From Paraspadella gotoi (lineage: Eukaryota; Animalia; Chaetognatha): a DNA stretch of 64,000 nucleotides. The notes under the pieces are model-generated. The model was not told the origin of the DNA. It ran no database searches and worked only from the letters and a program-made list of their open reading frames with translations. Position numbers and translations under genes: made by a program. Numbering within the stretch: position 1 is the first letter of the stretch; each line of letters begins with the position of its first letter. Below are positions 1,288 to 49,958 of the stretch, one piece after another. Location of the stretch: contig CM119263.1 of the NCBI GenBank assembly GCA_051294375.1, positions 1-64,000 of the forward strand, in the 5' to 3' direction.

Positions 1288-3447
1288 TCAATCTTGATCT
1301 GCTGCCGTTTGGTTTTTGTTGTCGGATTCAGTTCCCATGACAACGAACTTGAAATTTTTGTGAACGGTGGCGGCGACTTTGTGGCTTCCGAGTTGAGTCT
1401 CCTCTTCTTTCTTAGCGCTGTCTTCTCCTCCAACGACTAAGATGCTATTCTTAGCGAGAAACTTTTCCTCTTTAATCGTGTCTTTCTCGTCATTGTCGGA
1501 TATCTAAACGTTTTTATATTACTTGAATAATGAATATGTTGCTGGCGTTATATTCACACGCCTCACGTCCACCATCCGTCAGCCAAATCCATTGGCTCAG
1601 AGGGGGAACACACCATCCCAGGCGTAGTGTTCCATCCACAGTCCTAACAACTTCCCTCTGCGTTGGCAAAGCGAGACCGTCCTAGGGTAACCGCGCCAGT
1701 GACTGGAGGCGTCACTGAGGGTCGGAAGCCCCCAAAGCCAACAGTGAGATGCCCCATCCAATGGGCATCACAGGCAACCCGGCTGTTGCCAAACTATAAG
1801 CGGTGAGCCCTACTATCGACAGCACGCCAACTTCTCGAGGCCGTACGCTACGACAAAAACGGCCTATGCCCTGCGCGGACTGTCGGGTACGCTCACACAA
1901 GCAACGCCCTCTATGCCCCTGGGGTACGCCTACGACAAAACGCCTATGCCCCCACAACTCGCGCTCTCTCTCTCTTCTCCCACTATGGTAACATCTTGTC
2001 AGACACCTCTCAGCTTGAGGAACCTGAGTGATGTCTTAGCCCGGGCGATTCCTGTGGCGGTATATTCACACTGCCTCACGTCCACCATCCGTCAGCCAAA
2101 TCCATTGGCTCAGAGGGGGAACACACCATCCCAGGCGTAGTGTTCCATCCACAGTCCTAACAAACTTCCCTCTGCGTTGGCAAAGCGAGACCGTCCTAGG
2201 GTAACCGCGGCAGTGACTGGAGGCGTCACTGAGGGGGTCGGAAGCCCCCAAAGCCACAGTGAGATGCCCCATCCAATGGGCATCACAGGCAACCCGGCTG
2301 CTTGCCATTAATGTATTATGTTAAACAAATCGATAAATAAATTCTTGTGGCGATATATCAACAGTCTTACCTCTTCAGCCAATCCCAACGGGTCAGAGGA
2401 GGTATGCACCATCCCAACCGTGCGTTCCTTCCACAGTTAGAACACTTGTCCCTGCGCTGGCACGAGCGAGACCGACCTAAGGTAACCCGGCCAGTGGGAG
2501 GCGGTGCCACTGAGGGTCGGAAGCCCCTAACGCCAACAGCCGACATGCCCCACCCAGCTGTGAATCACAGCCAACCCGGCTCTTTCAATATTCTCATTTT
2601 AAAGAGACCGAGAAGAAAGGGGATAGCCCAACAAGGGGACCAGAAAGGTCTAAGATTTTTCCGTTAGTTGCACTGCTTTTCGGAACTACAGATGGTTTAA
2701 CTAACTGGTGGTTTAACCGGTCGATAATTCAGTTGCAAGGACCGTTTCTACTACGGTTTGAACCCGGGGCCCATTAGTACGGAGACACATACACACATAC
2801 ACTATTACCTACAGCCTTTCCCGACAATCATAGCCGACTCTTTTATATCCAATGAAAAGAGGAAAAACAGAATCGCCAGGATTTCCACAATTAGCCGTAG
2901 CCAGGAAAATTCACCTTTCTTACACCCTCGACACTTTGCTTCTGGGATTCTGCCAGATCGACGATCGTTTGTATGACATTGCTGTTGACTCGTTCGGCGC
3001 CGCCTATTTCCGTGGCGGAAGTCTTGGCGGGACTGACGACTTTCCCTTTGACGCTTCGACTGGGGATCGGCGGTTCTATGAGGCCGACGAGCGAATTGCC
3101 GGCACCGAAGAATTGCTCCTCAACGTCGTCGCCAAAGGGACCGAGAGGATCGTCCACGTCATTCTTGACGATCTTTTCTATGTCAGGCTCTAGGGTGACA
3201 GAGAGAGAGAGACCTTCTGGATAACATCCCACGGAATATTGCTCAGAAAAAAATATTATTATTGAAATAAGGTTACCCGAAAAATCAGCCGTCATTGCCC
3301 AACAGGATGATTTTCAGGAAACGTGGGGAACAAAATATATTAAATTTAAAATATCATTAAAGAGGAAAGATGAAACGAACCTGAAAGACTTTTAGAATAG
3401 ACAGCAGTCACGACGACGAAGAATAGTAATAATAATCCGCATGACAT
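1288..3447 (-). CDS. Small secreted acidic protein of unknown function; 3 exons (~3447-3381, ~3242-2915, 1503-1288)
   Basis: Exon 1 reads MSCGLLLLFFVVVTAVYSKSLS (signal-peptide-like) followed by a GT donor; exon 2 lies in ORF 2891-3295 and ends VRK|GTGAA; exon 3 starts after TTAG in phase 0 (ISDNDEKD...AADQD*). The exon 2 acceptor is approximate. Confidence 0.6.
1662..1742 (+). ncRNA. Twister ribozyme, type P5 permutation (family A, 5' LTR); predicted cleavage 1688/1689
   Basis: P5 GTTGGC/GCCAAC; P2 GCG/CGC; GA-CC-G; short P1 TCCTAGGG; TAA; GCC; P3 AGTGAC/GTCACT; P4 GGG/CCC enclosing TCGGAAGC; pseudoknot CC:GG. Confidence 0.85.
2176..2257 (+). ncRNA. Twister ribozyme type P5 (family A, 3' LTR); predicted cleavage 2202/2203
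   Basis: Same elements as 1662-1742 with small indels and a substitution (GGC for GCC). Confidence 0.8.
2346..2590 (+). mobile_element. Diverged solo LTR related to family A
   Basis: Starts TGTGGCG, ends ...CAATA, TSD TTCT (2342-2345 / 2591-2594); colinear with the family A LTRs. Confidence 0.8.
2456..2537 (+). ncRNA. Twister ribozyme type P5 in the diverged solo LTR (P2 imperfect)
   Basis: GCGA-GA-CC-G-ACCTAAGG-TAA-CCCG-GCC-AGTGG...CCACT-G-AGGG-TCGGAAGC-CCCT; P3 sequence changed while pairing is retained. Confidence 0.7.
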
Positions 3448-4928
3448 ATTAGTAAAAAAATACTGTTACATTATTTATATAATTCGAAAGGCCTGGCTTA
3501 AAAAAAAGTGGCCGACCCAATGTACGGTTATTTTTTATTAGAAAACTTGGTAAAATCGAAAAATACATTGATTTTGTAAAGTGAAAACGATACAAAACCT
3601 TCTTGTAACTCAAACCTTAATTTCTTGCATGTGAATAAAACAATCTCAATCTAACTTTTTATAAACTACCTAATAGTTATAACTCTTTGGCTGACCTAGT
3701 AAAAAAATGAGAGGCAATGTAAGTGACACAATTTTGCGTCAAACTTTATATCCTAAATCATTTTACAAACAAAAATTGTTAGCAGGATATTTATACGCTA
3801 AATGCGTAACCAAATCGCAGTGTAAACATTTCAAATGACTAAAAGAAATTAAACTCATTACATAGATTTAAAATTTCTTAAAGAAAGCTTCTTCGGCCGT
3901 AGCTAAAAGGAAAAGTCAAAGATGTTATGGTTTTCTCCTCTATATGAACGAAGTGTACACAACTTTACATCGTTTAGAGTGAAATGTAAAGTCGAATATT
4001 AAATAACTAACAGGTTGGTTTTAAATCATGGAACAGTACAAAGGCATATAACGTTAAGCATGAATCATACTAGGAAACCAACTTAAATGTACGAACAATT
4101 TCAGACATTCAACTTCATTCAATCATGCTTTGCAATTCACAGCAGAGAACGAAATACATTAAGATAAAAAAATAAACTTATTCTTAATTTCAATTCACCA
4201 TTGTTTTTTCAAAAACCTTATAAATATAATTGGTTTTAAAATGTTAATATCGCGAGTAAACTACACGGCACAACCAAACGTCTTCCCCCATTACACTCCA
4301 AATTCTTAAAATTAACTCTACAATTTTTTTATTAATTAAATTAAAAGCATGGAACTAAAAAAATATAATGTTCATTAAAATATATGTGGGAAATAAATGG
4401 CGGTCGAGTTGTATTTTAAGCTTCTTTTAAAACCTCTAATAATGAGTATTGCGAAAACAGGGCAGTCATCTTCATTCCTGACTTTTTTAAAGCGAAAAAA
4501 CATTCACGTCCAATCGAAAAATCTTTTCATGAGCACTATTTTAAAATAAATCGGTAAACCGTGGCACAGGATCTAATTACATTTGAGATAAAATATCGGC
4601 AGGAAAAATAATATTGATTAACGATTTAAAACAGAGCAAGAGGTTTCTAGTAATAACGTAAAAAGAGAACAATCAACTTTATACTTATATATAATTAAAT
4701 AAATAAAAAAAAGACCCTCAAAAAGAGTTACTAAAAGTTTTTTTAATTTATTGCGCGATTAGCCCTCGATTTTTTTGCAACGCGTCCTCAATCTCTTAAT
4801 GAAAATCGAACGCTGTTGGAGTCGCAAAGCATCCCTAAAGGCTACTAGTCAATCAGACGCTCAAACACATCATACTAAAAACGAAAAAAAGGGGACACAA
4901 CCGCGCGCGCGCGAGAGAGAGAAGATCA

Positions 4929-7900
4929 TCAGTACATGCCATAGGGTCCGCCAGAACCGCTGCCGGCCGAGTTGATGCTGGTCGGGTGAGAGGGGGCAGC
5001 ACCGCCCTGGAGCGGGCCTAAGGGATTGTTGGCGGCGGAGGTGGCGATGGCGGCGGTGGAGGCGGAGAGGGGGCCGCCGCCCGCGGCGGATTGGCTTGCC
5101 TTCCGCAAATTTTCTTTGGGTTTTAAATATTCGTCGTCGCCGAGGGCAAGTGCGTCGACGCGCTCTTCCTTGCGGTACTTGAGGCATTTGCGAATAAAGT
5201 TTTTCGCTTCGGGCGAGACGACTGGTTTGGCGGGGAACGTGACCTCCGTGGCCTTGAGGATGGTGTTCTCCTCCAAGATGGTCGCCTGCGACAGGTTGTG
5301 GCCGAAGGGCTTTTTACCGAACAAGCACTGGTAAAAAATGACGCCGACGCTCCACACGTCGACTTTGGAAGAAATCTTTGGGGGATTTTTGCCGACGACG
5401 AAGCACTCAGGCGGGAGATACCAGTACGTGCCGGCGCCCTGCGACGTTAAGTCCATACCCAGTTCCGGCGTGTAGTTGTCGTCGTCCATGATTTTTGAAA
5501 GACCAAAGTCGGTTATCTTAATCTCGCCGGCGTTGGAGGCTTTGCCCAGCAGAATGTTACCCGGCTTCAAGTCGTAATGAATGACGGGCGGTTTGATTTC
5601 GTTGAGATACTTTAGGGCCGCCACCGTTTGCATTATGATCGAACGGGCTTCCTTCTCGGGAAGAGACTTGTGTTGCTTTAAATGAAAGTCCAAGTCGTTT
5701 CCATCACAGTATTGTAACACAGTACAGAAAGAGTTGTTATCTATCTCGAAGACGTCATACAGCTTCACGATTCTGGCGTGGTCGAGCTGCTTGTGGATGT
5801 TGTACTCTCGTACGGCGTGTTTGATGTAGTTGGCCTTTTTTTCGTCCTTCCAGTCCTTGTTGAGTTGGTGGATCTTGCAGGCCGTGTACCTTTGTTCTTT
5901 GAGGTCGTAAGCCTTGTGAACCTCGCTGAATCCCCCTTTGCCGAGAAGGGTAAGCAACAAGTAGCGATCGTTTAGCGTCGTGTGATCCTTGAAGCGCGAA
6001 TTGTCCTCGTTCTGGATGCGTTTCAACTCGCGAATGTGCAGGTTGCGCTCGCGTTCGAGCTGCTCCAGCTGCAACTGCAGATCAGTGTCCTCTTTTCGCA
6101 AACACATTTGCCGTAATTTTAGAATTTCGTCTTGCTCGTGGTATTCGAGTAGCGTCATCTGGTTGGCTTCAGGTCCGTCTGTAGGGGGTGGCCCCATGTT
6201 ACCCTGAAAAAAATTAGGTCGAATCTGTTACGATAATTGATGTTTGTAAATTTTCTTTTTTATTACTACTTTCATCACGATTCCTCGATTAATCCGGGGT
6301 ATCAAAAAAAAATATTTTATCACGTTTAAAATTTAAAATCTGACCTTGTTTTTGGGCACCCTGTGGTTAATGGGTTTGTCGGCGGGTTTCCTCTTGACGA
6401 GGATTTTTCTGCATTTTTCTATTTCATCTTTTTCACGAGCGATTCGTTCCTGCTGCTTCTGAATCTCTTGGAATGCGTATCCGTCCGTCCAATTCTCTAC
6501 GAAAGTCGCTCCTTGTCGTTGGGTCACAAACTGGGGAACAATAGAGAAAGATGGTTCGAGGAAAAAATAATGAGACAACAGACAACAGACCCTAATGACA
6601 ACTACCGTGGCTGCCAAAAATGTTGGCCAATCGTGGTATTTGATAAATCGGAAATGATTTACCTGTCCGAGTCTGAGCCGATTTTCCATCGTCTTGTGCC
6701 TCGTCTCTTTCTTCTCGAAATTAGACTTTTCTATGAGGAGATCCCGAATCATGGCGATGCACTTGAAGAGTCCTTCCTTCTGCTTATCGATGAGTCTCGT
6801 TTGCGCGGTGATTTGCCGATTGAGCTCCTCGTTCTGCCGCGAGAGTTCGTCGATACGCTGATCCTTTTGGTCGAGGTCGCCGGCGTTGGCGGCGCTTACC
6901 ACCAACTGCTCCATGTTCTCCCGACCGATCTCAGTCTGCGCAGTCTTGGAGGAGAGGACGGGAGCGAGCGTCCCGCCGGGAAGTCTGGGCAACATGGGGT
7001 CGACCAGATGGAACGGGGGACCCATGTGATGAGGGATGGTGTGAGGGTGGTAGTTGCCTTGGGTACGAGTTTGGAGGAAGAATGAGCGTGAGGGGGCGGA
7101 TAAAAAAAAGCTTTTAATAAAAATACGTAAGGCTGAACAGTGAACACGGTTATTTTAGAGCTAATATAACCTTTCGATGACTTTTGCCTTAATCAAAGTC
7201 AAAGGTACAAATATGAATTTTATAATTGCACCTTAAAATTAAAGCTCTATATCTGGCCAGAATGACTTCACCGAAAAACTGCATAATCTACGTCCACAGT
7301 AGAATGTTTTGACATCAAAACAGACTGTGGAAAATTGGGTTTTTCGTGAACTACATGGCCCCTTTTTCTTTACGTGCGTACAATGTAAAAGAGATGTAGA
7401 CCTAGCCTATTTTGGACTTATCTCTAGCTCCAATAAAAATTTAGAGACAGCTCCAAATAATAGTTACTGTTGCTTCTAATGTTACATTTAAATGAATCCT
7501 AATTTTTTTAATGTTTATTAACTTACTCGGCTTTACTCGCTAATAAGTAAAAATAATTTATGAACACGTAACACTTTTTAGAAAATATTTCGTATTTAAA
7601 ACAAGCGAGTTTATAATAGGACAGCAGAAAATGGGTTTTTAGGTCAGAAATCTTTAGCTATAACAATTGTCCGAGCTAAGTGTCTTTCGTTATAAGCTTC
7701 ATGGTGTTCAAACATTTGTTTGAGTACAACAAAGTTTATTAATTATTTACTTTTTTATTGATATGATATTGGATCAAGTATTACCTAAAAAAGTTATCTT
7801 TTTGACTGAATCTAGTTTTAAAAAATATGTTAATAGTTACTTTAACATTTTTATAATTATTATTATTATTATGAATTTGGTACAACCAATATAAAAATTA

Positions 7901-10900
7901 TCCATTCATTTAATAAATAAGCTATCTTGCCCCTGACTTTAGACAGGCTTTGGTGGTTTAAGGCCTACATCACTCTTACAAGATAATAACATAGCAGGTT
8001 TCTGCAAGCTTTCAATCAAGACTCTCTCAGTCTCGTTTATTCACTCCCAGAGTACCTGGCTTCCCTATCAATGAAGTGGTATAATATTTCAAAGAAGGTC
8101 TAAATTGTATGAAAAGACCACCCCCTTAAGTATTAGATCGGGGAATAATATATTGCACTCAGTATTGTACCCAGCATTATTATAAAATTTTGTTATTTCC
8201 AAAATTATTTTTAGAGCAGAAGTGAAACTTTTTTCAGCCCACTCCAGCTCCAGCCGAGATGAAAACTCAGCTCCAGTTAGAAAATATATTCAGCTCCAGC
8301 TCTAGCTCTACATCATTTCAATGTACATATAAATGAATGACCATAGAACTTCAAGGCATTTCATAATACCAACAGAGATACGAAAATAAATGGCTCGGAC
8401 CGTATGTCATCGAAGTACAACTTTCTCAATAAATAAATCTGGCCCCAAAGCTAGAGCCAAACTTTGTCAATGGGGTGGGTAAGAAATTTGATTTGGGAAC
8501 CTTCCCAAATAAAACTTCATACAATTCTGAGAAAACTTTCAATGGACCAAAATTTTCTACAATGGCTAGAAGCACTAGTAATTAGTTTTTTAATATTTCT
8601 TTATAGGACACGATGCAAGTTAACGTGGCGAAACCTACCCATGCAAATTTTTAGCATATTTTTTTATCTGTGAGCCAAACTTAAAGCTTTATATTAATAA
8701 TACTGCACGCGTTTGGTTTTACCAAACCTTTACTTTTACCATAACCCTCACTTATCAACAAAAAAGGAAAATTAATAAAAAGGCAGTTAGAAGCAGACTC
8801 GTGGTGGCAAAAATTTATTTTATAATTTTGAATTTAGAAAATATAAATTTTAGATCAATCAATTTGGAAACTAAATGACGAATTTTTTCCCCCACTTTTT
8901 CAAGATTTGACTTTCTTTTTTTACTGTATTCCTCCTGGGTTGAGGCAAAGAATAAGGAAGACATTTTGAGTTAATTCATGTTATTGTAATCATATATGTA
9001 TATTTTGAAACAGTTCGGACTACAACTTCTATACCATTATGGTGGACTAAAATCCACCAACCGTTCATCAGCGGCCATTGGTGCCGGAGGCAAGTCATTC
9101 GCCTCCCAACCCAAAGGTCCGGGGTTCTAGCCCGGTGGTCGTCTGGCAGTTAAGAGGGACGGGGCGCTTAACCCGCCTGTAACATGGTGTTACAGCCTGA
9201 TCCGAAGCTCAGGGACTGCTTATATTGAACGGTTCTGTCATTAACACTTATCAATAATTACTGTCTCTTCACCATTTTTATTTCTTAAAAAATTAGGAAA
9301 AAAACATTTTAGAAAAACAAATTTTGAGCATTGAGAATTTTAGATCTGAAAATAGAGAACAAATTTTGAATTTTTTAAAAAATCAGCTTTTAACTATTTT
9401 ATTTTGCTATAATCTAAATTTTTTTTTTTGATATCTTTTATTTTAGAGTAGAAATAAAATTCTCAATGAGCATAGGTCAGTTCATTTTTTTTTTAATTTT
9501 AAAAAAAGATTTAATATTTTTTTTATTTAAATTAATATTTATACTTTTATGAATAAAACAAAGCTCATATGAATGTATAAAGATATAGGAGATGAATTGG
9601 AATGGTAAAAGTATAAAAAGTAAGAAGCTTGGAAAAAGCGTAAGTTAAGAATGAAAGATCAAAAAGGAAAACTAGAAATAGATTGATAGAGAGAAAGAAA
9701 AAAAATAAAGAGGGATATTGAATAAGAAAAAGAAAGAGTCATTGTTGTTATTATGTTTATACTTATTATTGTTGTTATTATTATTATATATTTTTATTTT
9801 TTAAAATGAAAAAATAATTAGTTAAAATTTTTTTTTATTTAAATTAATTTTTACCAGAATGATTTTGTCCAAACTTAAGATTAAGCTCAATCAACCTCTT
9901 TTCTGGCCACACACTAAATTTCAGATCAATCCATCAATTTACTAAAGTGTAATGATAGGTTAAAGTTACTGATGGATGGACAAATAAATAAATGTATAGA
10001 AAAAAGGAAGGATTCAATTTTTTTGGATAATTTTTTATAAATCAGTATTCTGAAGAGACAGTAATTATTGTAATGTTAGTGACAGAACCGTTCAATATAA
10101 GCAGTCCCTGAGCTTCGGATCAGGCTGTAACACCGTGTTACAGGCAGGTTAAGCGCCCCGTCCCTCTTAACTGCCAGACGACCACCAGGCTAGAACCCCG
10201 GACCTTTGGGTTGGGAGGCGAATGACTTGCCTCCGGCACCAATGGCCGCTGATGAACGGTTGGTGGATTTTAGTCCACCATAATTCTAAGATAAACCAAG
10301 TAATTTACTAACAAAATATAAGGGGTGGACAGATAAATGGATAAAATGGTTTATAGACTATTATAAAAAAAAAAATATATTAATTTTTTTTATTATCCTA
10401 TATTTTGTTATATCCTAACTACCAAATATTTTTTTGCATTGATTTTTTTTCATATATGAAGAAAACCATGATGTTTCATATAACCTATTCAGAGATAACA
10501 ATTTCAATCACCGATTTTTTTTTTTATGGCTGCATACACTACGCCACGCAAACTTGCATCGTGTCATAGATAGTAAATGTCAAAACTTTTTTTTAAAATT
10601 TTGCATTTTTAAAAGCAGATTCATATATTGTCTACACAAAGTATAATTCTTTGTTTAATATTTTAATGATAAGTAGGTCAAATTTAAGAAAAACCAGAAA
10701 AAATCATCCGATGATTTTAGCAGTTTTTGCTAATTTTCAGTAATAAAACATCAAAAGTTTAAAAAGTTGTAATTGTTTGCTTAACTTTTTGAGTTCTACC
10801 AGAATCAATTTAAAAAACTTAAAATATCCAAAAAAATTTTTTTACATTATATAATGATTTTAATTGGCGAATTACTCATGGTTCGGTACATTTTTAAAAA

Positions 10901-25500: not shown

Positions 25501-28500
25501 AGAAAAGAGAGAAAAAGAATAAGTCCCTGCAGAGCCAGCTGCAGGCTCGTTTTTTTCCCTATGATTATGAATCAGTGACTAGGGAAAATAAAGAGGGAGA
25601 GAGACATGTAATTAAGAGAGAAAAGAGAGAGAGAAAGAAATATGAAAATAAAAGAAAGAAAATTTGTTTGTTTTGATAAAACGTAAACAAAACATATTTA
25701 ATAACTGTCCAGACTCAATTTTAAGCACATCGATGATAAGCTGTATATAAATTTTCAGCTTCATACACCCAAATTTAATCATAAAAAAGGCGATCTATAA
25801 TTTGGAACGCCGACGACAACAACAACGCCGACGACGCCACTTATGGGCAAAAGCGATACAATATCGTCGCAAACGCTAAGCGATTGCGACGATAACAAAA
25901 AAATTTATATGCCTTCATTAAAATTTTTAACTCTGAAAACTGTTATACTTTTAACAAGGTTTTAAACAAATCCTAACTTAACATTTTTGGATAAAATTTA
26001 TAGAAACTAGTTCAGAAAGGTGCCCCATGATTAGGGCTTTAATTTGATACCTTGCCCACCATCCTATCTTTTTTCTTTCAAAAGTTATACAAAAAAATAA
26101 CTTTTTTTATCATCGGAGAACTAAGGATTTGAACTACGCAGTACAAATCTTTGTTAAATAAAAGTTTCAGCAAAGCGGGAGTATCTCAATTTATCCTATT
26201 TGTATAATAACTAAATTTCAAAATAAAAATTAAAAAAAAAATTTCAGTTATACCCATCGTCTTACTCGTTTATCAGAGAGAGATGAGAGGAGTCGCCAAC
26301 AAGTTACAGCACTGAAAAAGGCACACGCCAGAAGAGAGGCGAAGAGGCATAAAACGTAAGGAGCGGCTTGCAGAGACAGCTGCAGGCTCGTTTTTTTCCC
26401 TGGATGATGATAGAGTAAGTGACTTAGGGAAATAAGAGGGAGAGAGACATGTAATTAAGAGAGAAAAGAGAGAGAGAAAGAAAATATGAAATAAAGAAAG
26501 AAATTGTTTGTTTTGATAAAACGTAAACAAAACATATTTAATACTGTCGCTGCACTCTTTAACCGCACATCGATGATAAGCTGTATATAATTTCAGCTTC
26601 ATACACCAATTTAATCATAAAAAAGGCGATCTATAATTTGGAGCCGACGACAACAAAACGGCGCGACGAGCACTTATGGGCAAAAGTCGATTACAATATC
26701 GTCGCAAACGCTAAGGATTGCGAGCGATAACAAAAAAATTTATATGCCTTCATTAAAATTTAATCTGAAAACTGTTATACTTTTTAACAAGGTTTTAAAC
26801 AAATTCCTAACTTAACATTTTTGGATAAAATTTAAGAAACTAGTTCAGAAAGGTGCCCATGATTAGGGCTTTAATTTGATACCTTGCCACCATCCTATCT
26901 TTTTTCTTTCAAAGTTATACAAAAAAAATAACTTTTTTTATCATCGGAGAACTAAGGATTTGAACTACGCAGTACAAAATCTTTGTTAAATAAAAGTTTC
27001 AGCAAAGCGGGAGGTATCTCTTTTATCCTATTTGTATAATAACTAAATTTCAAAATAAAAATTAAAAAAAAAAATTTCAGTTATACCCATCGTCTTCATC
27101 CGTTATGGCTTATGGTTTAAGAATTCAGAGAAACAAAGTATCTAGTCCAAATTTCAACTTTTACACTGTACTTTTACTGTTATTCTAGGCCGAATCATAT
27201 TTTGCATGTATTTGTTCAGCATAACCGTCAGGAAAGGGATGGCTTGTTAGTACAAATGGTCAAAGTAAATTCATGAGCGATAATTTTTTTTCCGTGCACA
27301 TGAAATTAAGCGTGATCTGTCTGCGTCTTATGGTAGTTGTGGTGGTAGTTGTGAATATAGTGTTTGTTATAATTGTAATTGTTGTTGCAACTACATTTTT
27401 TTTCATATAAAAAAAACAAGCAAAATAAAATACATGTTAAGCGTAATTATTGTTTTTTTCCACCAACTCATTTCCACTCAGACGATTCCACCGAAACTTG
27501 ATTTCCAGCTTAATCACAATGCTTCACAACCAACACACAAAATTTCAGGTTAATCACCCTATCCACGCATGAGTAATTGGCGTTCCAAGCTGGTGGGACG
27601 GACGGACATGGATTTTTTTTGCATAATTTTATAAAAATTCGAAGATTAGACTTACGGACAAAGTTTAAACCATTTTTAAAAAGTCATTAAGTTCGCCAAA
27701 AATATTGAAAACTGGTTTTTTGTACTGATTTTTAATTTTCAGATTATGAATATAGTTTTTTATAATTTTGACTAACTTAATGACAAAATTTTCAAAAATA
27801 GCTTATACTTTCTAAAATCAATTATTTGTCAGGAATACAAATCCGTTCTTAAAATTGAAAAATTATCATTGATTGGTAAACGATCGCCACATATACTTAT
27901 ACATAGGATTTTTAATATACAAAATTTTAATAGGTTCTTATTTTCAATTTTTTATAGGTTAAATGTTAATTCTATAACATTTTATTTCACCCTACAGTAT
28001 TTACCCAATTTTAATAATATGTTTATACTTCAAACATGGACATTTCCGACAATAACAAGAAATTTTTGTATAAAATCATCATCACCATTACATTATTCGG
28101 ACTTTTTACCCTAAAATTTTCATGAATGAAGTTTGATATCTATATTTTGATTATTATATTTTTTTATAATATTTAGGTTTGGGTTAGGTTGATTCTCCTG
28201 CGATGTTACGAAAATACGTATAAATTGCAATGAGCGTTTGGAATGAAATGAGTTTGNNNNNNNNNNNNNNNNNNNNNNNNNAAGTTTACTAGATACAGTC
28301 ACAGTGATACTATAAGGGGGTTATGTTGCCTGTGATAAGATATGCATATAACTAGGTACCAAAAGGTTCAGTGTTCAGAACTAACATCAAAATCCAAAAT
28401 GAAATTAGACACATTTAGATTCAATACTGCAATATGTAAATGAGATTGAGAGATTCAATCTCATTTAAGATCATATTAAATAATCATCTCTTACAATACT

Positions 28501-31500
28501 GCTTCTTAAAAAATCATTATCAAAAATACCTGAGAAATATTTTGTTGATTCGGCGCCTGCGGACTGTCCCGCTTCCCCGCTTCCCCGCCTCCTTTTCCTT
28601 TTCCTGTGGCTTCGTGAGAGGCGCTGCGGTGTCGATCCGCGGGTCGACGAAAGGCGAGCAGCGTTGAGAAAATCTCGCCCACGGGTTTATTTCCCAAAAG
28701 CGACTCCTGCGATTGAGTCTTGGGCGGTTCCGACTTCGATCCTCGAGGACTCGTGTCGTCCTTCTGGAAGAGGGCGCCGAGTGGGCGAGAGCCCGAAAAC
28801 AGGGCGCCGGTCGGTCGATTCTTGCCCAAAAGGAAGGAAGTGGTGGGTCGCCCGGAGCCGCTCGTCGACGTGGACGCCTCGGATCCAGAAGGGTCGCGGC
28901 GCTGTGCCTCGCTTTTGGGGGCGCAGGCAGCATCGGCGTCTAGAGGTTTTCCATTAGGAGATTCCGAGTAGAAGCTCGGCAGCATTGGAGGACGAGAGTC
29001 ACCGGACGAAGAGGATGGTGGTTGGTTGGGTGGGGAAGGGCCGGGAATGCCGGAGGTAGGGTAGGGCGAGGTGGGCTGAGGTTGATGAGGGGATGGAAGG
29101 TAGTTGGGTTGAGCTTGAAGAGGAGATTGGAGAGGTTGGATGGGAGACAGATGCGGTTGAGATGGAGACGGCTGAGGTTGTATCGGAGATTGCTGAGGAT
29201 GATTCAACGGGGAATGTTGCGGGTGCATGGGCGAATGTTGTGGTTGCATAGGGGAATGCTGAGGGTGCATTGGCGAATGTTGAGGATGCATAGGAGAATG
29301 CTGGGGATGCATAGGAGAATGTTGGGGAGGCATAGGAGAATGTTGAGGATGCATAGGAGATTGGTGCGATTGCATAGGTGATTTGTGAGAATGGCCAGAG
29401 TCGGTCTGCGGCGAGCGAGAGGCCGCCATTTTGTAATGGGCGGTCTCCTGCTTTTCAGAGGGAAAAGGAAGTGTTTCGACGACGGAGATTCCGCGTTCTA
29501 AGTCTGTCGTTCGAATCTTGATGGGCGGGACGCGACCCTCCATCGCCGGGCGGTCGTCGTTCTCCCTCTTTAAATGCTGAATTACTTGGTAGATCTTTTC
29601 GGGTTGCGGACTGCGATGATCCCTCACTTCTGCTTTGAATGTCAACTCGTTGGTCAGCTTGTTCTTCAGCATGTGGTGCGGCGATGGGTGAGCGTCGATG
29701 TCGGTCTTGGCGCCCGGTAGCGGCGGAGTGCAAAGCTGCGGAGAGTGGGAGACTTTACGGCCATCGGCGCCGCCGACGCCCTTGTCCGAAGACGGGGCCT
29801 TGATCACCTGTGCGTCTCTCGGTGATGGAGAAGGAACGGGCGAAATGAACTGATAGGCGGCGCTGACCGGAGGAGTCGTCAGTTGTCGAGGGGAACCAGG
29901 CGCGCCACCGAGGGCGTTGTTACGGACAATGAGATCCAAGAGGTCGGACCCGTCCGAAGTCTCTTTGATCGACTCGAAGTCGCTCTGAATCTCGCTGGAC
30001 AACGCGGGTGACTCAGAAGTCGGCGGCGTCGACGAGGTCGAACCCTGGAATCACAAATGTTCTTCACTTGTAAGTTTTAATAATAATTGACAAAGTTGCA
30101 CATTCAAAACTAGTATGAAATGTTTTCGTTTAGACGCATAAATCATTAAAAATTACTAAATCTCTATCAAGAATAATGAAGAAATTAATATAATGTGGTG
30201 AATCCTAAATTCGCCTCCCGTATAGCTTGGTGAAACTCAGCTCGTCCCATTGGCTTGGACAGCTAAGTACTCGTTCACCAACCGTGAGTTCCGGGTTCAA
30301 TCCCCTCACGGTCACGCTGGTTAAAGTGTGATGGTGTCGGCATAAACACGCCAGTGACATGGGGTGGTCACTGCAGGTCCAAAGCCAGCTGGCAGGAGAT
30401 GCCTCACACCCCAGGCATCGCACATGTCCCTCCGTTGCCATAAGTGGTTAGCCCTACTATCGAACACGCAACCGCTGCGTACCGTCGTTCACGTCGTCGC
30501 TTAAGGGTATGCATCCCACGCCTATGCCCTACTTCTCGCTCGCTCTCTATGGCAATGAGTCTGTCTACTCTCAAGACAGTCACTCTGGGCTTGGTCACCC
30601 CAGTGTGCTGTCTTGGGGGGGGCATGTGTGGTGAATCTTAAATTCGCCTCCCGTATAGCTTGGTTAAACTCAGCTCGTCCCATTGGCTTGGACAGCTAAG
30701 TACTCGTTCACCAACAGTAGGGCGTTGAAAAATAACGAAATATAACAGATCAAATGAGGTACATAGCTATTTTAGTGTAATAAAGTCTAGAATTCGATGA
30801 TATAACCATTTTTTTGTATAGTCTCATCTTCTTTGTCGGAAATGGCGATTTTTGCAGCATATAAGGTGCTATTAAAATGGAGCAAACATTGTAGAGTATA
30901 AGAAACTAAAATTATTAAGATTTTATAAAGCTATATTTAACTTATATAATATAAAAATAAAGCCCCATATAAATATTTTGGTAAGTTTATTTACAAATTT
31001 TATATTTTATTAATAGTTTGTTAGCTATATTTATTAATAAATAATAATAAAAAATAAGCTAAAGTGAAAAAATAAAAAAATTCAAATTTTAAAACCGGAT
31101 TTGAATTCCTTACAAAAAGTTGATATAAGAAAGTATAATCCATTTTAAAAAATTCATTCATTAAGTAGGTTAAAAATATTAAAAACTATTTTTTATTTAA
31201 TTTTTCAGTTTTTGGCTTAAAATTATAGTTTTTCTGATTTGACCAACTTAATGACATAATTTTTGATATAAAAATTATATTTTCTTATATCAACTTTTTA
31301 CAAAGAATCGCAAATCCATGAAAAAAATTTTGAAATTATTATTTTTTTAACTTTAACCTAATTTTTACTCATAATTATTATAAATATAGATAATTAAATT
31401 TTATAAAAAACATAAATTTAGAAATAAACTTAACAAAATATTTTATAAGTCTTTATTTTTATATTTCAAAGCTCATATAAATTTTATAAAATTTTATAAT

Positions 31501-34500
31501 TTATTTATCATAAATTATATGGTTTTGCTTTTTTAAACATTTTATATACATTAAAAACCGTCATTTCCGACAAGAAAGATAAAATTATACAAAAACATGG
31601 TCATCACCATCGAATTCTACAGACTACATTACACTAAATAGCTATGTACCTCACTTGATTGTTATATTTTATTTATTTTTCAACCTCTAACCACGTGAGT
31701 TCCGGGTTCAAATCCCCTCACGGTCACGCTGGTTTAAAGTGTGATGGTGTCGGCATAAACACGCCAGGGACATGCGGTGGTCACTGCAGGTCCAAAGCCT
31801 GAGCGCCAGCTGTCGGGAGATGCCTCACACCCCAGGCATCGCACATGTCCCTCCGTTGCCATAATAATTCCAATCTATTTAAAAGAGAATTGAGAGATAA
31901 AAGATAAAGATAAGTAGGAACCGGAATAATCAGTGGAATGGAGCTCTCGAGGCCCCAAATTTTGATTAATGAAATATAAGACACAAAATATTTTACTCTT
32001 ATTCTGAGGGAACCAAACAGATCATAATACAGGGACTCCTGTCAGGGAGTCCAGCTTTATCGGTATCTTAAGCTCAAGAGCGATTTTAAGATGGAAAAAA
32101 ATTATTGGGAAACTGGAAGCCTAAATTTGACCCAAAAATTGTCCGTAATTTTTTCTATCACAATTATTCTTTTTTAATTTTTAATAAAATTTAAAAAAAT
32201 AATATAGGAAACAACCAGACTTGTCGCCTCAGTTCTCCTGACTGTGATCCCTAAACTTTTATTAGCCAAACTTCGTTCAATGGGGTGGGTCAGAAGTTTG
32301 TTTGGGAACCTCATACATTTCTGAGAAACTTTCAATGGAGCAAAATTTTCTAAATGGCAAGAAGCATTAGTAATTAATTTTTTAATATTTATTTATAGAT
32401 AGGAAATGTCAAAAATTTTTTTTTGAATTTTTTATTTTTAAAGCAGATTCAAATAGCTTATGAAAAGTTATCTACACAAAGTATAATTCTTTTTTCAATA
32501 TTTTGGGTTTAAATTGAAAAAACCTTAAAAAATCATCATCATCATCATCATCCGATGATTTTAGCAGTTTTTACTAATTTTAGTAATAAAACATCAAAAT
32601 TTTTAAAAGATTGTAATTATATTTTTTGCTTAACTTTTTAAGCTCTATCAGAATCAATTAAAAAAACTTAAAATATCCAAAAAAATTTTTGACATTATAT
32701 AGCAATAAAATAATATTAATTAGCGAATTACTCATGGTTCGGAACATTTTTGTAAAAAAATATTAACACAATAATTAATACCATAATGGATTAGTTTAAT
32801 GCTGTTCCCATTAAAAATTGAATTTGGTCGCTACCTCTACTTTTATGAAAGGGAGTTACTTAAGCCAGAAGTCAAAAGTGTCTCCTGCATAATAAATAGT
32901 TATTAACCATCCATTCTCCCGAATGCAGCCATAGTGGTAGGACTGGAGGCTTTCCTACCGGGTTCGCAAAAGCTTGCTCAAAGCTTCTGTGGGTGCTTGC
33001 AAAGGTTTTTCAAGGCAGTCCAAATGTGAAAAATAAATGATATGAGTCTATTAGAGATGACAAAGTTTTTTTTATATAAATAATTCGTGCAAACAAAAAC
33101 TTTGTCAATCTCTAAACATTTCGAACAACGAAAAGAAAGGATTAACACAATAAGATATGAGTCAAAGGAAATCAGAGAGGGAGAGAGTGAGAGAGAGAGG
33201 AAGAGAGTGAGGGCAAAAATTCAAAAAGAGGAAAAAAGAAAAGTTAGACAAAAAAAAAGTTTTTCAGATGTTCTCAGCGTAAAAAATAGGAAAAAAGTCT
33301 AAATTCATAACTTTTTGACTCGTTTTATTCATTTTTCACATTTTTTCATATTAATGGTTTGAATTTTATAATTAAAGGCAGCATATAAATATTCTCATCT
33401 CTCAATCTTTCAATTCCTCCAACCTAATAATTATTAAGTCTCTGCGGTTTTGAAATACGGATGAATCTAACGAGAAGAAAACACTTATCAAAATATAAAA
33501 TAATAATAAATTGTTAAAAACGAACCTGAGACGTTGAGACTTTTATTCCTCCTGCCGCCGTTGCCGAAGCGGCGTGGCTCCCTCTCAATGAGCTTAATGG
33601 CGGCGCGGGCGGCGTCTCTATTCGAGAGGACACCGCGTTGGGTGGCTTCATGGCTTGCGTCGGCGGAGAAGGACTGTAGTGCGGGGAGAGCTGCATAGAA
33701 GGATGGCTCGGAAGCCGCGGGGGCATGTGCGTCGTCGGCTTTGTCGACGGAATAGCCGGAGAGCTTTCTGGACGGCCGGCGATGTGCATTGAGACCGCAT
33801 CGGTCGACGGCGTGACTCCCTGAAGCGTGCGGCTCATATGTTGCAGATTCGCCAGAGCGGGGTTAGACCCCATGCTCTTGCTATTGGGCGGAAGATGATA
33901 CCCCGCCGCGATAATGTCCTGAGGTTGTATGGGAGTATGTCCGGATGTCTCCGCAGTGTGGTTCGTCCCGGACCGAGATTTAAAGTTGTTTGATTGATCG
34001 ACGCTCGTCGCCGTCTCGGGGGACGTCAACGAAGATTCTGGGGGCCTCAGATGTTTTCTCGACTCCGCCTGCTGATGTTGCAAATGATGTTGCTGAAGGT
34101 AATGTAATTGCTGTTGCCGGAAGGCGGCGTGGGAGAGATCTTGGGACGCGGAGCGTGGAATGGGATCCCTGGAGGCAGCGGCGGCGGCGGCCGACTGGGA
34201 TTCGTGGCGGGAAGAAGAGGACGAAACTGTGGAGGGAGCGGAGGCGGAGGACGCCGGCGACGACAGATATTGACGGATGAGATTCGAGGATGAGGAAGAT
34301 GGCGTCGAACGCGACGCGGAACCTCCGTGAATTCGGACCAGATCCGGAACGGGCAACATGTCTTTACCAGGCGGGTAGCCTTGGTAGCCTTCCACGTTGG
34401 ATGTCGAAGGCTGAAAAGTAATACGATGGTTTAAAATTGATCAAAGAATCATCTCCCTCTCTCCCTCCCCGCCTCTACAGATTATAGACGAATTTCAGTT

Positions 34501-36507: not shown

Positions 36508-37439
36508 AATGATAATCTATCGGTCTTCCAATATCGCGGTAAAGAAAAGTCTATTTTTCATCTTGGTGCAGAATGAGTTTTTTCTCCAGGTACAATAAAC
36601 GCTATAAAACCGAAACATTATTTAGTATTTAGTATTTAAAGCAATTAGTTCCAACAAAATTTCTTTTTCCATAAAAACCTGAGAAATTAACATTTTGAGT
36701 TTACTTTTAAAAACAAAAAGTAACGGCCACAAAAAATCGGTATTTAATCCCAGCAAAACGAGGAAAATAGTTGAATAAACAAATATAAACAAATAATCTT
36801 GGAATTTTCTTAATTAAAATTAGCTGCGGTCGTAGCGCCAGATATGGCGACTACGAAACATCTCCCCCAGTGCATACGTTAACATCACAGAGCTCGTAAG
36901 GATGTGATACGGAGATGCCACATCCGTGTTTCCAGAATTCACAGAACGAGGCTCACACCCGCTTGTTTTTTTCACTTTTCTCTTCATGCAAGAAAAACTC
37001 ATCTTCGGGAGCCTGAATTAAGCGACCTCCATATTTTTATCTTTTGTTTTTTTATCGTCGCAATCGCTAAGCGTTTGCGACGATATTGTAACGCTTTTGC
37101 GCATAAGTGGCGTCGGCGTCATCGTTGTTGTCGTCGGCGTTCCAAATTATAGATCGCTTTTTTTATGATTAAATTTGGGTGTGTGAAGCTGAAAATTTAT
37201 ATACAGCTTCTCATAATCGATGTGCTTAAAATTGAGTCTGGACAGTTATTAAATTTGTTTTGTTTACGTTTTATCAAAAACATAAAAACCAAAAAAAATT
37301 GACCGGAATAAAACTCACAAGAGCGATCAAATGATAGAGTACTATTTTGGAGGTGTTTGAACCTAAGAATTTATAGGAACTTTTAAGATAAAATCGATTT
37401 TAACTAATATTTTTGATAATTTTAGTACAGATTTTTAAA

Positions 37440-40167: not shown

Positions 40168-40403
40168 TATGGTGGACTAAAATCCACCAACCGTTCAACA
40201 GCGGCCATTGGTGGCGGAGGCAAGTCATTCGCCTCCCAACCCAAAGGTCCGGGATTCTAGCCCGGTGGTCGCCTAGCAGTTAAGAGGGACGGGGCGCTTA
40301 ACCCGCCTGTAACACAGTGTTACAGCCTGATCCGAAGCTCAGGGACTGCTTATATTGAACGGTTCTGTCACTAACACATATCAATTATCACTGCCTCTTA
40401 TCA
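40168..40403 (-). mobile_element. Family C solo-LTR-like element
   Basis: High identity to 9038-9271; TSD unclear. Confidence 0.8.
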
Positions 40404-42391: not shown

Positions 42392-44933
42392 TTACTCGTT
42401 TCCTTCTACGAGCTTTATAAGCAAGATTCCGAGATGGTCCGAGTCTCCGAGATCGTCTTCAATCCTTTTTCTCAATGTTGTTTCGAATTTTCTTTCGTAT
42501 TCTTCTCTTATTTTAGCTAAATCGATCTGAATGAGTAATCAATAAATATATTGAAATTATTCGTTAAATTTTCTTTAGTAACGTGTTATGGATTTACATA
42601 AACGATGTCCGAGTTAAAATTTTTAGAATTTGTAAGGGACTTTATCTTTAGTTTTGGCTTAAGATACAGAATTATTGATAATTAGGAGCGTTACCTCGCA
42701 ACGTCGAACAATGGTGTACCACAGACGATATTCGCTTGTCCCAATTCCACACATACAATCTTCTAAAAGCTCAGCGAAGTAGCTGACAGGATCCTTAGCG
42801 TATTTCACTATAAATTTTGCAAAACTATGTATGACTTGCTAATTTTTAGTTGCGCCGCGAGTACTCGCGAAGCAACTCTATAAGAACACTTGGGTTTCCT
42901 TCGGTCGGTCCGAATGTCTGTCTGTCCATCAATCTATCTTACTTACATTAAAAAAAAACTCATAACTCGGGCAATACCATATCAATTAAGCTCCTTGAAC
43001 TAGCCGGTTCTTGTTTTATTTGAAATTCCATTTGATTGCGCCCGACTTATTTTTACCAACGGTTAGTGAAGGGGGGGGGGGAAAGGGGGCTTTTTTCTTT
43101 TTCCCCCGGCTAGGGGGACCGGGAACCTCTTGCAAAATAAGACACTTTGGGGGGGGCCCCCGGACTGTCCTTGTCCCCTTCCCCATTTTCTTCCAAGATA
43201 CAATCGTACATTTCCACCATTTTCCTCAGTTGTTTCCACGATCGCGTCATGAAACACGGACATGAATGCTGTTTCGTCAGTTCCAATTTTTCCTTCGCCT
43301 TAAAACATCGAGTAAACACTCTTAATGCTATTAATAAAAAGTCCAAGAGCACAAATACTTTCATTCACGTTCTACAGTGATTAATAATAGTGTCATGAAG
43401 CAAACTCACAATGACAACAGACAACAGTCACAAAAACGTTGACAATCACCTGCTTCGTAAATCTTTTTGGCGTCTTCTCGGGCCATATCTTCGTCCACCT
43501 TCTTGCTCTCGCTCCTTCCGCCGGATAATATGGAAATCATGAATCTCTCGAAGTAGCCGCCCAAATCAGAGCTAATAGCTTCTTGAAGTTCTTCCTCGAA
43601 GACTGAAAAAAAAAGAAGCAATGGCATTCCATATGTGATATGTCATTCAATGGGAAGACAAGTTCTTTTCTCACGTTCTTTGTATTTCTCCTTCAGCTTT
43701 TCCACTTCTTTCGGACGAATCGTCCCGAAGACATCGACTAGTACTTCTTCGGATGTGCCTGCACCTTTGAGGGCGTCGCGAACGAGTTGCGCCAAAAATT
43801 CCGTTCTTTCCTGAAAAAATTTAATGAAAATCATAGAAAAAAATTAAATATAGAAGAATCAATTATTTCAAAATATACCAATTGTATAGTGTAAAACTAT
43901 ACTATAACTGTTAACTGTGTAATGGATAAATAAATTGCATACAACCGTAAGCTAATAGCTACTCACTCTAACGAGACCAATGGCGCAGTCCTCAAAATGA
44001 CCATGGGCTTCCTTTCGAATGTCCTCAATCAAATCCTACTTAAATCAAAAAGTTGATAAAGCATATCCGGATCTAGGCATAACATATCTGTAACATAACA
44101 TACTCGACCGTAGAGAGCGGTGTACTGAGTGGAGATTTCTTGTATCTGTTTGTTTGAGTGGGAACCTAGCACGGCGCCGATTCTGTCTTCGTCCGTGCCC
44201 ATGCCTTCCATCGCCCCACGGAGTTCCTCCGCAGCTGCTTGTGATTCGAAGTCTCGAGCTTTGCCGATTGAAGCCTTAAATAAGAATTAGAAAAGTGTGG
44301 CGAATCCTAAATTTGCCTCCCGTATAGCTTGGTGAAACTTAGCTCGTCCAATTGACTTGGACAGCTAAGTACTCGTTCACCAACCGTGAGTTCCGTTTCA
44401 ATCCCCTCACGGTTATGCTGGTTCAAGTGTGATGGTGTCGGCATAAACACGCCAGTGACATGGGGTGCTCACTGCAGGTCCAAAGCCCTGAGCGCCAGCT
44501 GTCGGGAGGTGCCTCACACCCCAGGCATCACACATGTTCCCCGTTGCCATAATAGTTTTAATTTAATTATGGCGACGGCCTCAGTTTAAAAATTAAACAA
44601 TCTTTAAAAATAGAAGGAAAATATTGATTTAGGCCCGAAAATATTTACTCATTAGGAGCCTTTTAAAACAATATGGTGATGAGACAGTAATTATTGTTGT
44701 GAGCTTTGGATCAGGCTGTAACAGCGTACTACAGGCGGGTTAAGCGCCCCGTCCGTCTTTACTGCTAGACGACCACTGGGTTAGAACCCGAGACCTTTGT
44801 GTTGGGAGGCGAATGCATTGTCTGCAGCACCAAAGGCCGCTGATGAACGGTTGGTTGATTTTAGTCACCATAAAGAAATATTTTAGACTCTCATTTTAAA
44901 ATTTCAGCAAAAAATTGTCAAAAAACTTACCAT
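42392..44933 (-). CDS. Annexin (paralog 1), about 7 exons
   Basis: ATG|GTAAG first exon; AMEGMGTDE, ALKGAGTSE, SDLGGYFE, CVGIGTSEYRL, IEDDLGDSDHLG; the third repeat is not clearly found. Confidence 0.85.
44296..44551 (+). mobile_element. Family B solo LTR in annexin intron 1
   Basis: TGTGGCG...TTGCCATA; near-TSD AAAG/ATAG. Confidence 0.88.
44417..44499 (+). ncRNA. Best-preserved twister type P5 ribozyme (family B); predicted cleavage 44444/44445
   Basis: P5 GCTGG/CCAGC, P2 GTGT/ACAC, GA, pseudoknot TG:CA, P1 TG-TCGG-CA, TAA, GCC, P3 AGTGA/TCACT, P4 CAGG/CCTG around TCCAAAGC. Confidence 0.9.
44677..44872 (+). mobile_element. Diverged, internally deleted family C element
   Basis: TGATGAGACAG...TTAGTCACCATA, colinear with 10051-10282. 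Confidence 0.75.
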
Positions 44934-47898: not shown

Positions 47899-47967
47899 AT
47901 AAACGACAGAAGTGAATTGGGGAACCACGAGAAGCAAAGGTTGAATAAAGGGCGAAAACCTAAAATA

Positions 47968-48163
47968 AGACTGATTAGGAAAAGACTTGCTTATTTTGAC
48001 AAAACTGAATCAGGACTGATTAGGAAAAGACTTGCTTATTTTGACAAAACTGAATCAAGACTGATTAGGAAAAGACTTGCTTATTTTGACAGAACTGAAT
48101 CAGGACTGATTAGGAAAAGACTTGCTTATTTTGACAGAACTGAATCAGGACTGATTAGGAAAA
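47968..48163. repeat. 45-bp minisatellite, about 4.3 copies
   Basis: GACTGATTAGGAAAAGACTTGCTTATTTTGACARAACTGAATCAR repeated. Confidence 0.92.
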
Positions 48164-49724
48164 CTCGTCTAAAGAAAAACAAGAAAAACCCGACTATCAA
48201 GGCCTTTGATTCGAGGGTCGACCCGACCTAACTCTATTTTGTTCAGTGGGGGGGGGGGTTAGAAAGGACTGACATCGACGAATCAGAGCGTTTTAAACAA
48301 TGTCGAAGCTGCCCACGATCATTAGCGGTAATTAATTAATTTGATCCGAAATGTTTGTTTTTGGGTCTTTTCGTCACTGACCACGACAAAAGCAACGACG
48401 ACGATAATGGCGACGATGACAATAATGCCGATAACGATTGACTTAATTAATTGACTAATTGATTAATTAACTGTTTAATTATTTGTTTAATTAATACATC
48501 TTGTATTTACATATAATATAAAAAAAAGCATAACCAACAAGAATTAGTGAAAAAGGTTTTTTTATTTCCATTTAAACTCATTTCCACTCAAACGATTCCA
48601 TCGAAACTTGATTTCCAGCTTAATCACACACTTTCCTATCCACATACAAAATTTCAGGTCAATTGCCCCATCCACTCATAAGCAATTGGTGTTCAAATAG
48701 TGAAATATATTTTTTCGTTTTTTCCATTTAAACTCATTTCCACTCGCACGATTCCATCGAAACGTCATATAGAGCTCAATCACACACTTCCCTACACGCA
48801 CACATAAAATTTCATTACAATCCATTTATCCAATCACGAATAATTGGAGTTTTTTGCTAAGGTGGACAGACGGACGGACGGACGGACATTATTTTTTTTG
48901 TTTAATTTATCATAATTCGATGTTCTGAGGGGGAGAAATAGAGTGAAGAAAAAGCAACATTAAAAAGAATAATTTGACTTTGACATAAGTTGTAGTAAGT
49001 CACCAAAAAAGTTATAGAACGAAAAGGTGAAATATATTCCGATCTTCTTTCCTCTTCACACCCAAAAAAATTGCGTGATTCCTTTGATGAGTCACTCGAT
49101 GATTCACTTGAATGTGATTTAGACGAAACTCATTTTCGGTTCCACAAAAAAGGGATGCCATTTGACCATATGTTTTCATTATAAGATGAAATTGTTACAA
49201 CCAATATATAAATTAAGGCTTCTATCACTCATAAAAGATGATAAGATAACAGAACCATGCAAGCTTTCAATTAAAGGTATCACAGTCCCGTGTACCCGGC
49301 TTCCCTATCAATGAAATAATATAATATTTCAAATAATGTTATATTTGTATAAAATGACCATTCAACTTAGTATAAGGTCGGAGAATACTACAATGTACAA
49401 TGTACTCTTAAGTTTTGAGAGAAATTTATTTTTTGATTCTCGAAATTTAAATAATCTTACGATTGCTTTCATAGATTGTCCAAAAACAGAAGAAAACATT
49501 TTTTCAGCCAAAGACCAAAAAAAATACTTTGCTGCACTAAATTCACTTAAAACACGAAATTATAGGTTCGGCAACTGCCCTTATAGGTCATAAGAAATAT
49601 TTATTTATAGTTGATTGTTACACTATAATAAATAGAAAGGTTACAGAACTGCTAAGTCATTATCTTGTAAGAGTGATGGAGGCCTTAAACAAACAAGGCC
49701 TGTCCAAAGTCGGGGGAAAGACAG

Positions 49725-49958
49725 TGAAGAGACAGTGATTATTGTTATGTTTTAGTGACAGAACCATTCATTATAAGCAGTCCCTGAGCTTCGGATCAGG
49801 CTGTAACACCATGTTACAGGCGGGTTAAGCGCCCCGTCCCTCTTAACTGCTAGGCGGCCACCAGGCTAGAACCCCGGACCTTTGGGTTGGGAGGCGAATG
49901 ACTTGCCTCCGGCACCAATGGCCGCTGATGAACGGTTGGTGGATTTTAGTCCACCATA
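49725..49958 (+). mobile_element. Family C solo-LTR-like element
   Basis: Near-TSD ACAG/ATAG; empty site (AAG-ATAG-CTT) in the related repeat near 7920. Confidence 0.85.

Follow-up and report, generated by a model that had tools for sequence, protein, structure and literature searches.

Repeated elements at the locus

The DNA analysed here, referred to throughout as the window, is a stretch of 64,000 nucleotides from one contig (CM119263.1) of the chaetognath Paraspadella gotoi. It contains a tousled-like kinase gene on the minus strand (4929-7154), whose best named relatives, at 82-86% over 4929-6227, are from molluscs, chelicerates, and annelids, and an intron of a minus-strand host gene (1504-2912, CT..AC on the plus strand) that is supported by the spliced run X9. 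Three long terminal repeats (LTRs) of one repeat family, A1, A2, and A3, lie within this intron, antisense to the host pre-mRNA. Together with three further families, B to D, they are found at the following positions:

1540-2310, plus strand: family-A element of 771 bp, arranged as LTR-internal-LTR and flanked by ATGT on both sides
1540-1798, plus strand: its 5' LTR (A1); a box-A-like 11-mer lies about 53 nt into it, and read ends fall at about 1559 and 1791
1799-2052, plus strand: its non-coding internal region, starting with a PBS-like motif common to family B
2053-2310, plus strand: its 3' LTR (A2), 99% identical to A1
2346-2586, plus strand: diverged LTR (A3), 79% to A1, with P2 mostly unpaired and low read depth
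30194-31863, plus strand: two-LTR element of family B, flanked by ATAA on both sides, about 680 bp without its insertion
44296-44551, plus strand: solo LTR of family B with an intact core (twister-P1 E value 0.034) and box A/B-like motifs
9038-9271, plus strand: solo LTR of family C, flanked by CCAT on both sides, P1 segment at 9163-9168
10051-10282, minus strand: solo LTR of family C, flanked by GAAT on both sides, P1 segment at 10152-10157
40168-40403, plus strand: solo LTR of family C, P1 segment at 40293-40298
49725-49958, minus strand: solo LTR of family C, P1 segment at 49828-49833
44677-44872, minus strand: decayed copy of family C, found by eye, P1 segment unchanged
7920-7988, minus strand: core of family D (D1) with a mini P3 and a P5 of 8-9 bp, in a very high-depth repeat at about 7890-8160
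49655-49724, plus strand: core of family D (D2) with T1 fully paired, in the repeat 49632-49724

In families A and B a ribozyme motif lies in both LTRs, around a non-coding spacer. Families C and D occur as single units only, with no two-LTR copy of either in the window. A 4-bp target duplication is exact in four of eight elements, agrees at three of the four bases in two, and is absent from the remaining two, and an empty site at about 39472 confirms the insertion of the family-C copy at 10051-10282. Fixed ends and 4-bp duplications led to the rejection of a Penelope-type (non-LTR) origin. The internal region of family A has no clear polypurine tract, and a G-rich tract before the 3' LTR is found in family B only. 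The 3' LTR of family B is split by a MITE-like insertion of about 975 bp with inverted ends (30717-31693). Motifs resembling tRNA boxes A and B lie upstream of the ribozyme, both of them in B1 and a box B with a loose box A in family C; the family-A LTR has box A only and family D has neither. ARAGORN and Rfam called no tRNA. The end motif with which family C starts (9038-9271) matches the 3' end of A and B (30194-30442) in reverse complement, and the family-C ribozyme may be oriented opposite to its LTR ends.

The assembly carries many small indels relative to the reads at 1540-2310 and 30194-30442, so defects confined to a single copy, in A2 and B1, may be errors. The diverged copy A3 was itself considered as an assembly error and this was rejected on the read support in DNA runs, two of which read its P1 segment with 0 differences. 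A further copy of family D lies at 49195-49410. Other repeats of the window comprise one of about 235 bp that has no twister core (25671-25903, 26511-26738, and 37044-37279) and minisatellite arrays of about 52, 29, and 45 bp (54138-55178, 60130-61340, and 47956-48180, respectively); the remaining repeats of the window yielded no further twister family.

Contig depth summed over the family-A LTR reaches 0.8-2.0 million, compared with a depth of about 200 on single-copy DNA of that run, a contrast that should not be taken as a copy number. Together with the five to six copies of family C in 64 kb, this depth indicates that the repeats are very abundant. Depth on the LTR exceeds that on the internal region, so most copies seem to be solo LTRs or to have other internal parts. 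Internal positions 1792-1863 are near single-copy depth in DNA runs and reach 2200-5000 in the spliced run X9, where the tousled-like kinase contig has a depth of 64; this higher depth in X9 hints, but no more than hints, at good expression of the full element.

A twister-like core within the LTRs

The layout of the core is illustrated by the copy in the 5' LTR of family A:

1662-1742, plus strand: type-P5 twister-like core A1, with a weak match to Rfam twister-P1 (E 6.8)
1662-1667 and 1737-1742: P5
1671-1674: 3' strand of P2
1675-1676: GA
1677-1679: T1
1688-1690: UAA, with the predicted cut at 1688/1689
1691-1694: 5' strand of P2
1695-1696: GC
1697-1717: P3
1719-1732: P4/L4

Stems P2 and P4 and a closing P5 are present, with P1 at the position of an internal hairpin, which is the architecture of a type-P5 twister. 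P2 has two to four pairs and includes a C-A mismatch in A, D, and most copies of C. Both pseudoknots are present and covary: T1 is formed as CCG/CGG, UGG/CCA, or CGG/CCG, and the short pseudoknot of 2 bp is GC/GC in families A to C and AC/GU in D. The catalytic residues UAA, GA, and U...AG in L4 are conserved. A twister descriptor matched seven times in the window, whereas 100 shuffled versions gave 0.9 matches on average and never more than 4. The segment following T1 is P1 of a type-P5 twister-like core carried in the LTRs of small non-coding retroelements.

At gathering scores, Rfam gave no match in the window. The best score was 21 bits against a gathering threshold of 67.2, to the twister-P1 model, which matches the 3' halves of the cores weakly (E 0.034-6.8); family C was not matched, and no hammerhead was found in the window by Rfam. 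Every copy therefore falls below the gathering threshold, and families of this kind have probably been overlooked elsewhere. For family D, assignment as a twister is credible in view of its covaried AC/GU pseudoknot, its 8-9-bp P5, the paired T1 of D2, and the read depth, most of which differs from D1 at its two T1 mismatch positions.

A palindrome in the place of P1

The initial annotation placed a minimal P1 at 1680..1688. The segment itself covers 1680-1687; the U at position 1688 already belongs to the UAA cleavage loop. The P1 segments are:

1680-1687, plus strand: family A, 5' LTR, TCCTAGGG, an 8-nt quasi-palindrome
2194-2201, plus strand: family A, 3' LTR (A2), TCCTAGGG
30335-30342, 31748-31755, and 44436-44443, plus strand: family B, TGTCGGCA
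Positions given above: family C, GGCGCT (RNA GGCGCU), 6 nt, fully self-complementary
7961-7966 (minus strand) and 49680-49685 (plus strand): family D, AGGCCT (RNA AGGCCU), 6 nt, a perfect palindrome

The segments of families A and B, TCCTAGGG and TGTCGGCA, are both placed between the 3' strand of the T1 pseudoknot and UAA, as in the layout of type-P5 twisters. Folding energies bear out the earlier description of these two segments as self-complementary and, as hairpins, limited to 2 bp and a loop of 4 nt. The hairpin is unstable (dG +2.7 kcal/mol in A and +2.9 in B), whereas the self-duplex pairs at all eight positions, with two G-U each, and has a dG of -11.0 (A) and -9.5 kcal/mol (B). Across the families, P1 can form 1-2 bp in cis with a dG above 0 and 6-8 bp between two copies. 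Formation of a hairpin accounts for the outer P1 pairs only and leaves the inner pairs unexplained, and the G-U pairs in three families point to pairing of RNA rather than of DNA.

The central dinucleotides of P1 in the four families are UA, CG, CG, and GC, which are always complementary and unable to pair in cis. The inner two pairs are complementary in all four high-depth families, with a chance probability of 0.0004 (local composition) to 0.0014 (segment composition), rising to 0.002-0.006 when A3 is counted as a fifth, failing case. Families C and D were found after the hypothesis had been stated and both are palindromic (out-of-sample P about 0.02). The z scores show kinship between A and B (9-15) and between B and C (3-7), with none detectable for D; the P values for the inner pairs are therefore optimistic, although the P1 segments have no sequence in common. 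The 8-mer by itself is within chance for a 64-kb window (10 of 100 shuffles reach three matches), and its remaining matches, at 59533 and at 17703 on the minus strand, have no ribozyme context. The signal resides in the position of the 8-mer inside the ribozyme and in the recurrence across families. There are two exceptions: A3 carries ACCTAAGG at 2475-2482, which is not palindromic in register, and one P1 base differs in a truncated family-D copy near 49213.

Within P1 of family A, the only variants at a level of at least 2% in read contigs are 1683 T>G, 1684 A>C, and 1684 A>T, with contig counts in run X1 of 27, 39, and 35, respectively. The first two together change the centre from UA to GC and keep the palindrome; they are phased in one contig and otherwise unphased. 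Their shares differ between runs, tenfold in run X5, and 1684 A>T disrupts the centre. This variation is suggestive, but not strong, support for central pairing having been kept. Taken across the families, the pattern makes it probable that P1 has been selected for pairing between two copies.

Comparison with natural type-P5 twisters

Natural twisters conserve P1, yet in vitro they can do without it. As a comparison, 57 of 94 prokaryote and phage loci from scans for the P5 type were kept, giving 34 distinct P1 segments, all from twisters with a GGG/CCC T1. These bacterial, archaeal, and phage twisters have the same permutation and conserved core as those in the window. They differ in P1, which is a stable hairpin of 15-34 nt with an ordinary loop in the controls and a self-complementary segment of 6-8 nt in the window: among the 29 control segments with a full P2, all are within this longer range and 28 form stable hairpins. 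Both inner pairs are complementary in none of the 25 control segments of even length, a set that was not filtered for type-P1 closure downstream and in which one member is the 6-nt spacer of a tandem phage twister; a complementary centre occurs in 10 of the 25, mostly from one related group. The P1 segments of the window are thus outliers among these natural P5 twisters.

Folding of single and paired copies

Energies were computed without pseudoknots. In this framework, a strand-swapped double twister is a nested, feasible fold, and its energy relative to two cleavage-compatible monomers is -11.7 to -14.3 kcal/mol in families A to D, compared with -0.2 kcal/mol for A3 and +1.0 to -6.2 kcal/mol for 30 controls. 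Closure of the internal loop within one transcript costs about 6.4 kcal/mol net, and the dilution cost for a dimer in trans is 8.5 kcal/mol at 1 uM and 11.3 at 10 nM. With these costs, pairing in cis retains a gain of about 5-8 kcal/mol per pair, and pairing in trans at low levels retains little. The cleavage-compatible monomer is separated from the free minimum by 3.7-9.1 kcal/mol (by 13.8 in D2), the control median being 3.1, and monomers are predicted to misfold, with the P1 segment pairing into core strands. Free cofolding found the P1:P1 duplex unaided for B3 and D1 and did not give the double twister for A1 and C2.

The initial annotation proposed that the two LTR ribozymes of one transcript could swap strands to form an 8-bp P1, in which case full-length elements would cleave better than solo LTRs. 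The nested fold and the recurrence of the palindrome in four families favour this proposal, but in the natural span from A1 to A2 the pseudoknot-free model gives the P1:P1 duplex a probability of only 0.02.

A possible copy-dependent ribozyme

We suggest, with a probability of about 0.5, that the palindrome pairs with a second copy, giving a strand-swapped double twister whose cleavage would be faster than that of a single copy. The precedent is found in hammerheads, where ribozymes with a palindromic minimal stem III were put forward as dimer cleavers; this agrees with the literature, in which they are reported to cleave better as dimers (PMC6765202, PMC7761336, PMC7229834). The corresponding feature, a palindromic minimal stem beside the cleavage site, is present in all four families and lacking in A3. 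For twisters, published accounts of P1 vary. A review states that twisters without P1 cleave at near wild-type rate (PMC5408937), and for 1948 natural twisters of type P1, scored at a 3-h endpoint, P1 length, stability, and mismatches are described as having no effect on cleavage (PMC11662667). Elsewhere, cleavage of P1-less twisters is called inefficient and P1 sequence is said to affect activity (PMC8501958), and aptamers placed at P1 of a permuted, engineered twister of the P3 type are reported to switch output 6- to 35-fold (PMC5052635). The earlier claim that cleavage depends on dimers is therefore only partly sustained. Pairing between copies looks selected, but twister P1 is reported as dispensable, unlike hammerhead stem III, so monomers may cut anyway. 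Whether pairing of P1 between copies controls cleavage is, in our estimate, an even bet, and a strict requirement for a dimer is less likely than that, and on balance improbable.

In the proposed mechanism, an internal promoter of Pol III type in the 5' LTR, or read-through, would yield a transcript with both LTRs. P5, P2, and P1 would then pair across the two copies in a nested fold, from which the internal region protrudes as a loop, and two cuts would free a unit of 514 nt (A) or 433 nt (B). A host ligase could circularise this unit, with a junction identical in sequence to the LTR, and the circle would be slow to recut because its single core lacks a stable P1. Full elements and solo LTRs might be copied from the circle by a Gypsy-type helper. 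The whole scheme, from transcription onward, is inferred. Lone copies would be leaky rather than dead, and the scheme would favour cutting of two-LTR transcripts while sparing circles and solo copies. In its most far-reaching form, which we consider rather doubtful, these would be the first natural obligate or near-obligate dimeric twisters, in Pol III-driven animal LTR retrozymes, with P1 acting as a copy counter through which two-LTR transcripts are cut and the circle and the thousands of solo LTRs in host transcripts are spared; twisters and hammerheads would in that case have reached one solution independently.

The simplest alternative is that the ribozyme cuts as a monomer and P1 has shrunk because it is dispensable, the palindrome being a by-product of a minimal hairpin (a closing pair with a C-N-N-G-like mini loop) and of GC-rich sequence. 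The dispensability of P1 in vitro and the truncated yet active twisters at retrotransposon 5' ends are in keeping with this, as is the loss of the palindrome in A3. On geometric grounds, a link of 6-8 nt, as n bp plus 4 nt, should close the core without strain, and the family-A element lies antisense in a host intron, as expected were sense copies harmful. Such a mini loop, however, needs no complementary centre, and the centre is Watson-Crick in all four families (P 0.004). The UA/GC covariation in family A, the retention of long P1 hairpins in natural P5 twisters, and the energetic distance of the cleavage-compatible monomer from the free minimum also argue against it, and we regard monomeric cleavage with an incidental palindrome as fairly unlikely.

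Selection could also have acted on dimerisation of the RNA for another purpose, such as co-packaging into a helper particle or template switching, with cleavage being monomeric; the dimer signal of retroviruses is an analogue. This would account for all of the covariation and fits a dispensable P1, and once cleavage has taken place the palindrome would form the free 3' terminus of the unit RNA. It is harder to see why the palindrome should then fill exactly the P1 slot between T1 and UAA in four families, it lacks a flanking stem that would expose it as a kissing loop, and no helper element was found in the window. We judge this reading to be unlikely. An origin of the palindrome as a DNA site for a dimeric protein (a transcription factor or integrase) would suit the segment of family D and, in family A, the inner 6 bp, which are perfect DNA palindromes, but the four sequences have no common motif and full symmetry depends on G-U pairs in A, B, and C, making it very improbable. 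For the preferred reading of pairing between two copies, the P1 covariation goes beyond what a single strand explains, and a cheap assay can therefore test P1 as a switch.

Relation to known elements and ribozymes

To our knowledge, the natural roles of twisters are mostly unknown. Our literature search, in which some primary twister papers were known second-hand only, found no report of dimeric twisters or of twisters in LTRs, and the available parts of PMC10085705, PMC5680766, and bioRxiv 10.64898/2026.07.22.740005 contain nothing on twister dimers. The closest functional parallel is with the minimal type-I hammerheads of Penelope-like elements and amphibian retrozymes (PMC6765202, PMC7229834, PMC7761336), which, as described there, likewise have a stem of 1-2 bp, a palindromic loop, and tandemly repeated termini; they are reported to be poor as monomers and better as dimers, with unit RNAs accumulating as circles. 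They belong to another ribozyme class in which stem III is part of the core, in contrast to the reportedly dispensable P1 of twisters, and the elements described here differ from those retroelements in their LTR-type ends and 4-bp duplications.

The organisation of the elements is more like that of the LTR retrozymes of plants, which are reported to be non-coding, with an LTR-internal-LTR arrangement, a ribozyme in each LTR, a 4-bp duplication, and many solo LTRs (PMC4918200). In that account the plant ribozyme is a type-III hammerhead that cleaves from a single-LTR construct; here it is a putative twister, in an animal host and in shorter LTRs (230-270 bp). The tRNA-Met PBS described for the plant elements was not recognised, and a PBS-like motif directly follows the 5' LTR instead. 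Helenus (TRIMp3) elements, described as two-LTR TRIMs of 311-1263 bp whose LTRs carry tRNA-derived boxes A (TRGCY, YGG) and B (GGTTC) (PMC10886601), are similar in size (A 771 bp, B about 680), in tRNA box-like LTR motifs, which are clear in B and C and reduced to box A in A, and in the 4-bp duplication, which animal Helenus also has; family D differs from them in lacking the boxes. Twisters are not mentioned in the available text of the Helenus paper, and comparison of five L4 8-mers with its supplement, in which line wraps could hide some matches, gave three, none in a twister context. The elements of the window resemble both Helenus TRIMs and plant LTR retrozymes without having all features of either. 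A weak or missing P1 in an animal retroelement is also described for the Perere-3 T-variant twisters of Schistosoma (PMC8501958). These are of type P1, occur singly at the 5' end of an element of the non-LTR kind, and form P1 with the insertion site; the accessible portion of that paper makes no mention of a palindrome or dimer.

The finding is an extension of the known theme of retrozymes and dimeric ribozymes. If the preferred reading of pairing between copies is correct, gating of cleavage by dimers would be extended from hammerheads to a second ribozyme class, and the LTR retrozymes of plants would have a counterpart in animals that uses a twister. The tolerance of a genome for very many repeats with ribozymes would also be explained, and a ribozyme gated by two copies would be a useful engineering part.

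Searches for relatives

Related eukaryotic twisters may be available from the CHiTA supplement and Roth's alignments. Pattern scans of viral contigs for relatives of the LTR families gave one chance locus in one scan and none in another, and a scan of viral contigs for the P3 type returned 37 loci with no usable P3 twisters. The corresponding scan of metagenome contigs for LTR-family relatives gave 27 loci, none of which had P2, T1, and P4 all paired; eight of these (L056, L061, L063, L066, L067, L070, L071, and L076) look like one type-P1 twister-like family. In three viral contigs (L034, L046, and L050), two type-P1 twisters are arranged head to tail with a common 6-nt spacer, which would leave the second twister with little P1 of its own. 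Two other loci, L069 and L074, carry related putative twister-like motifs with a 6-nt segment and an imperfect T1.
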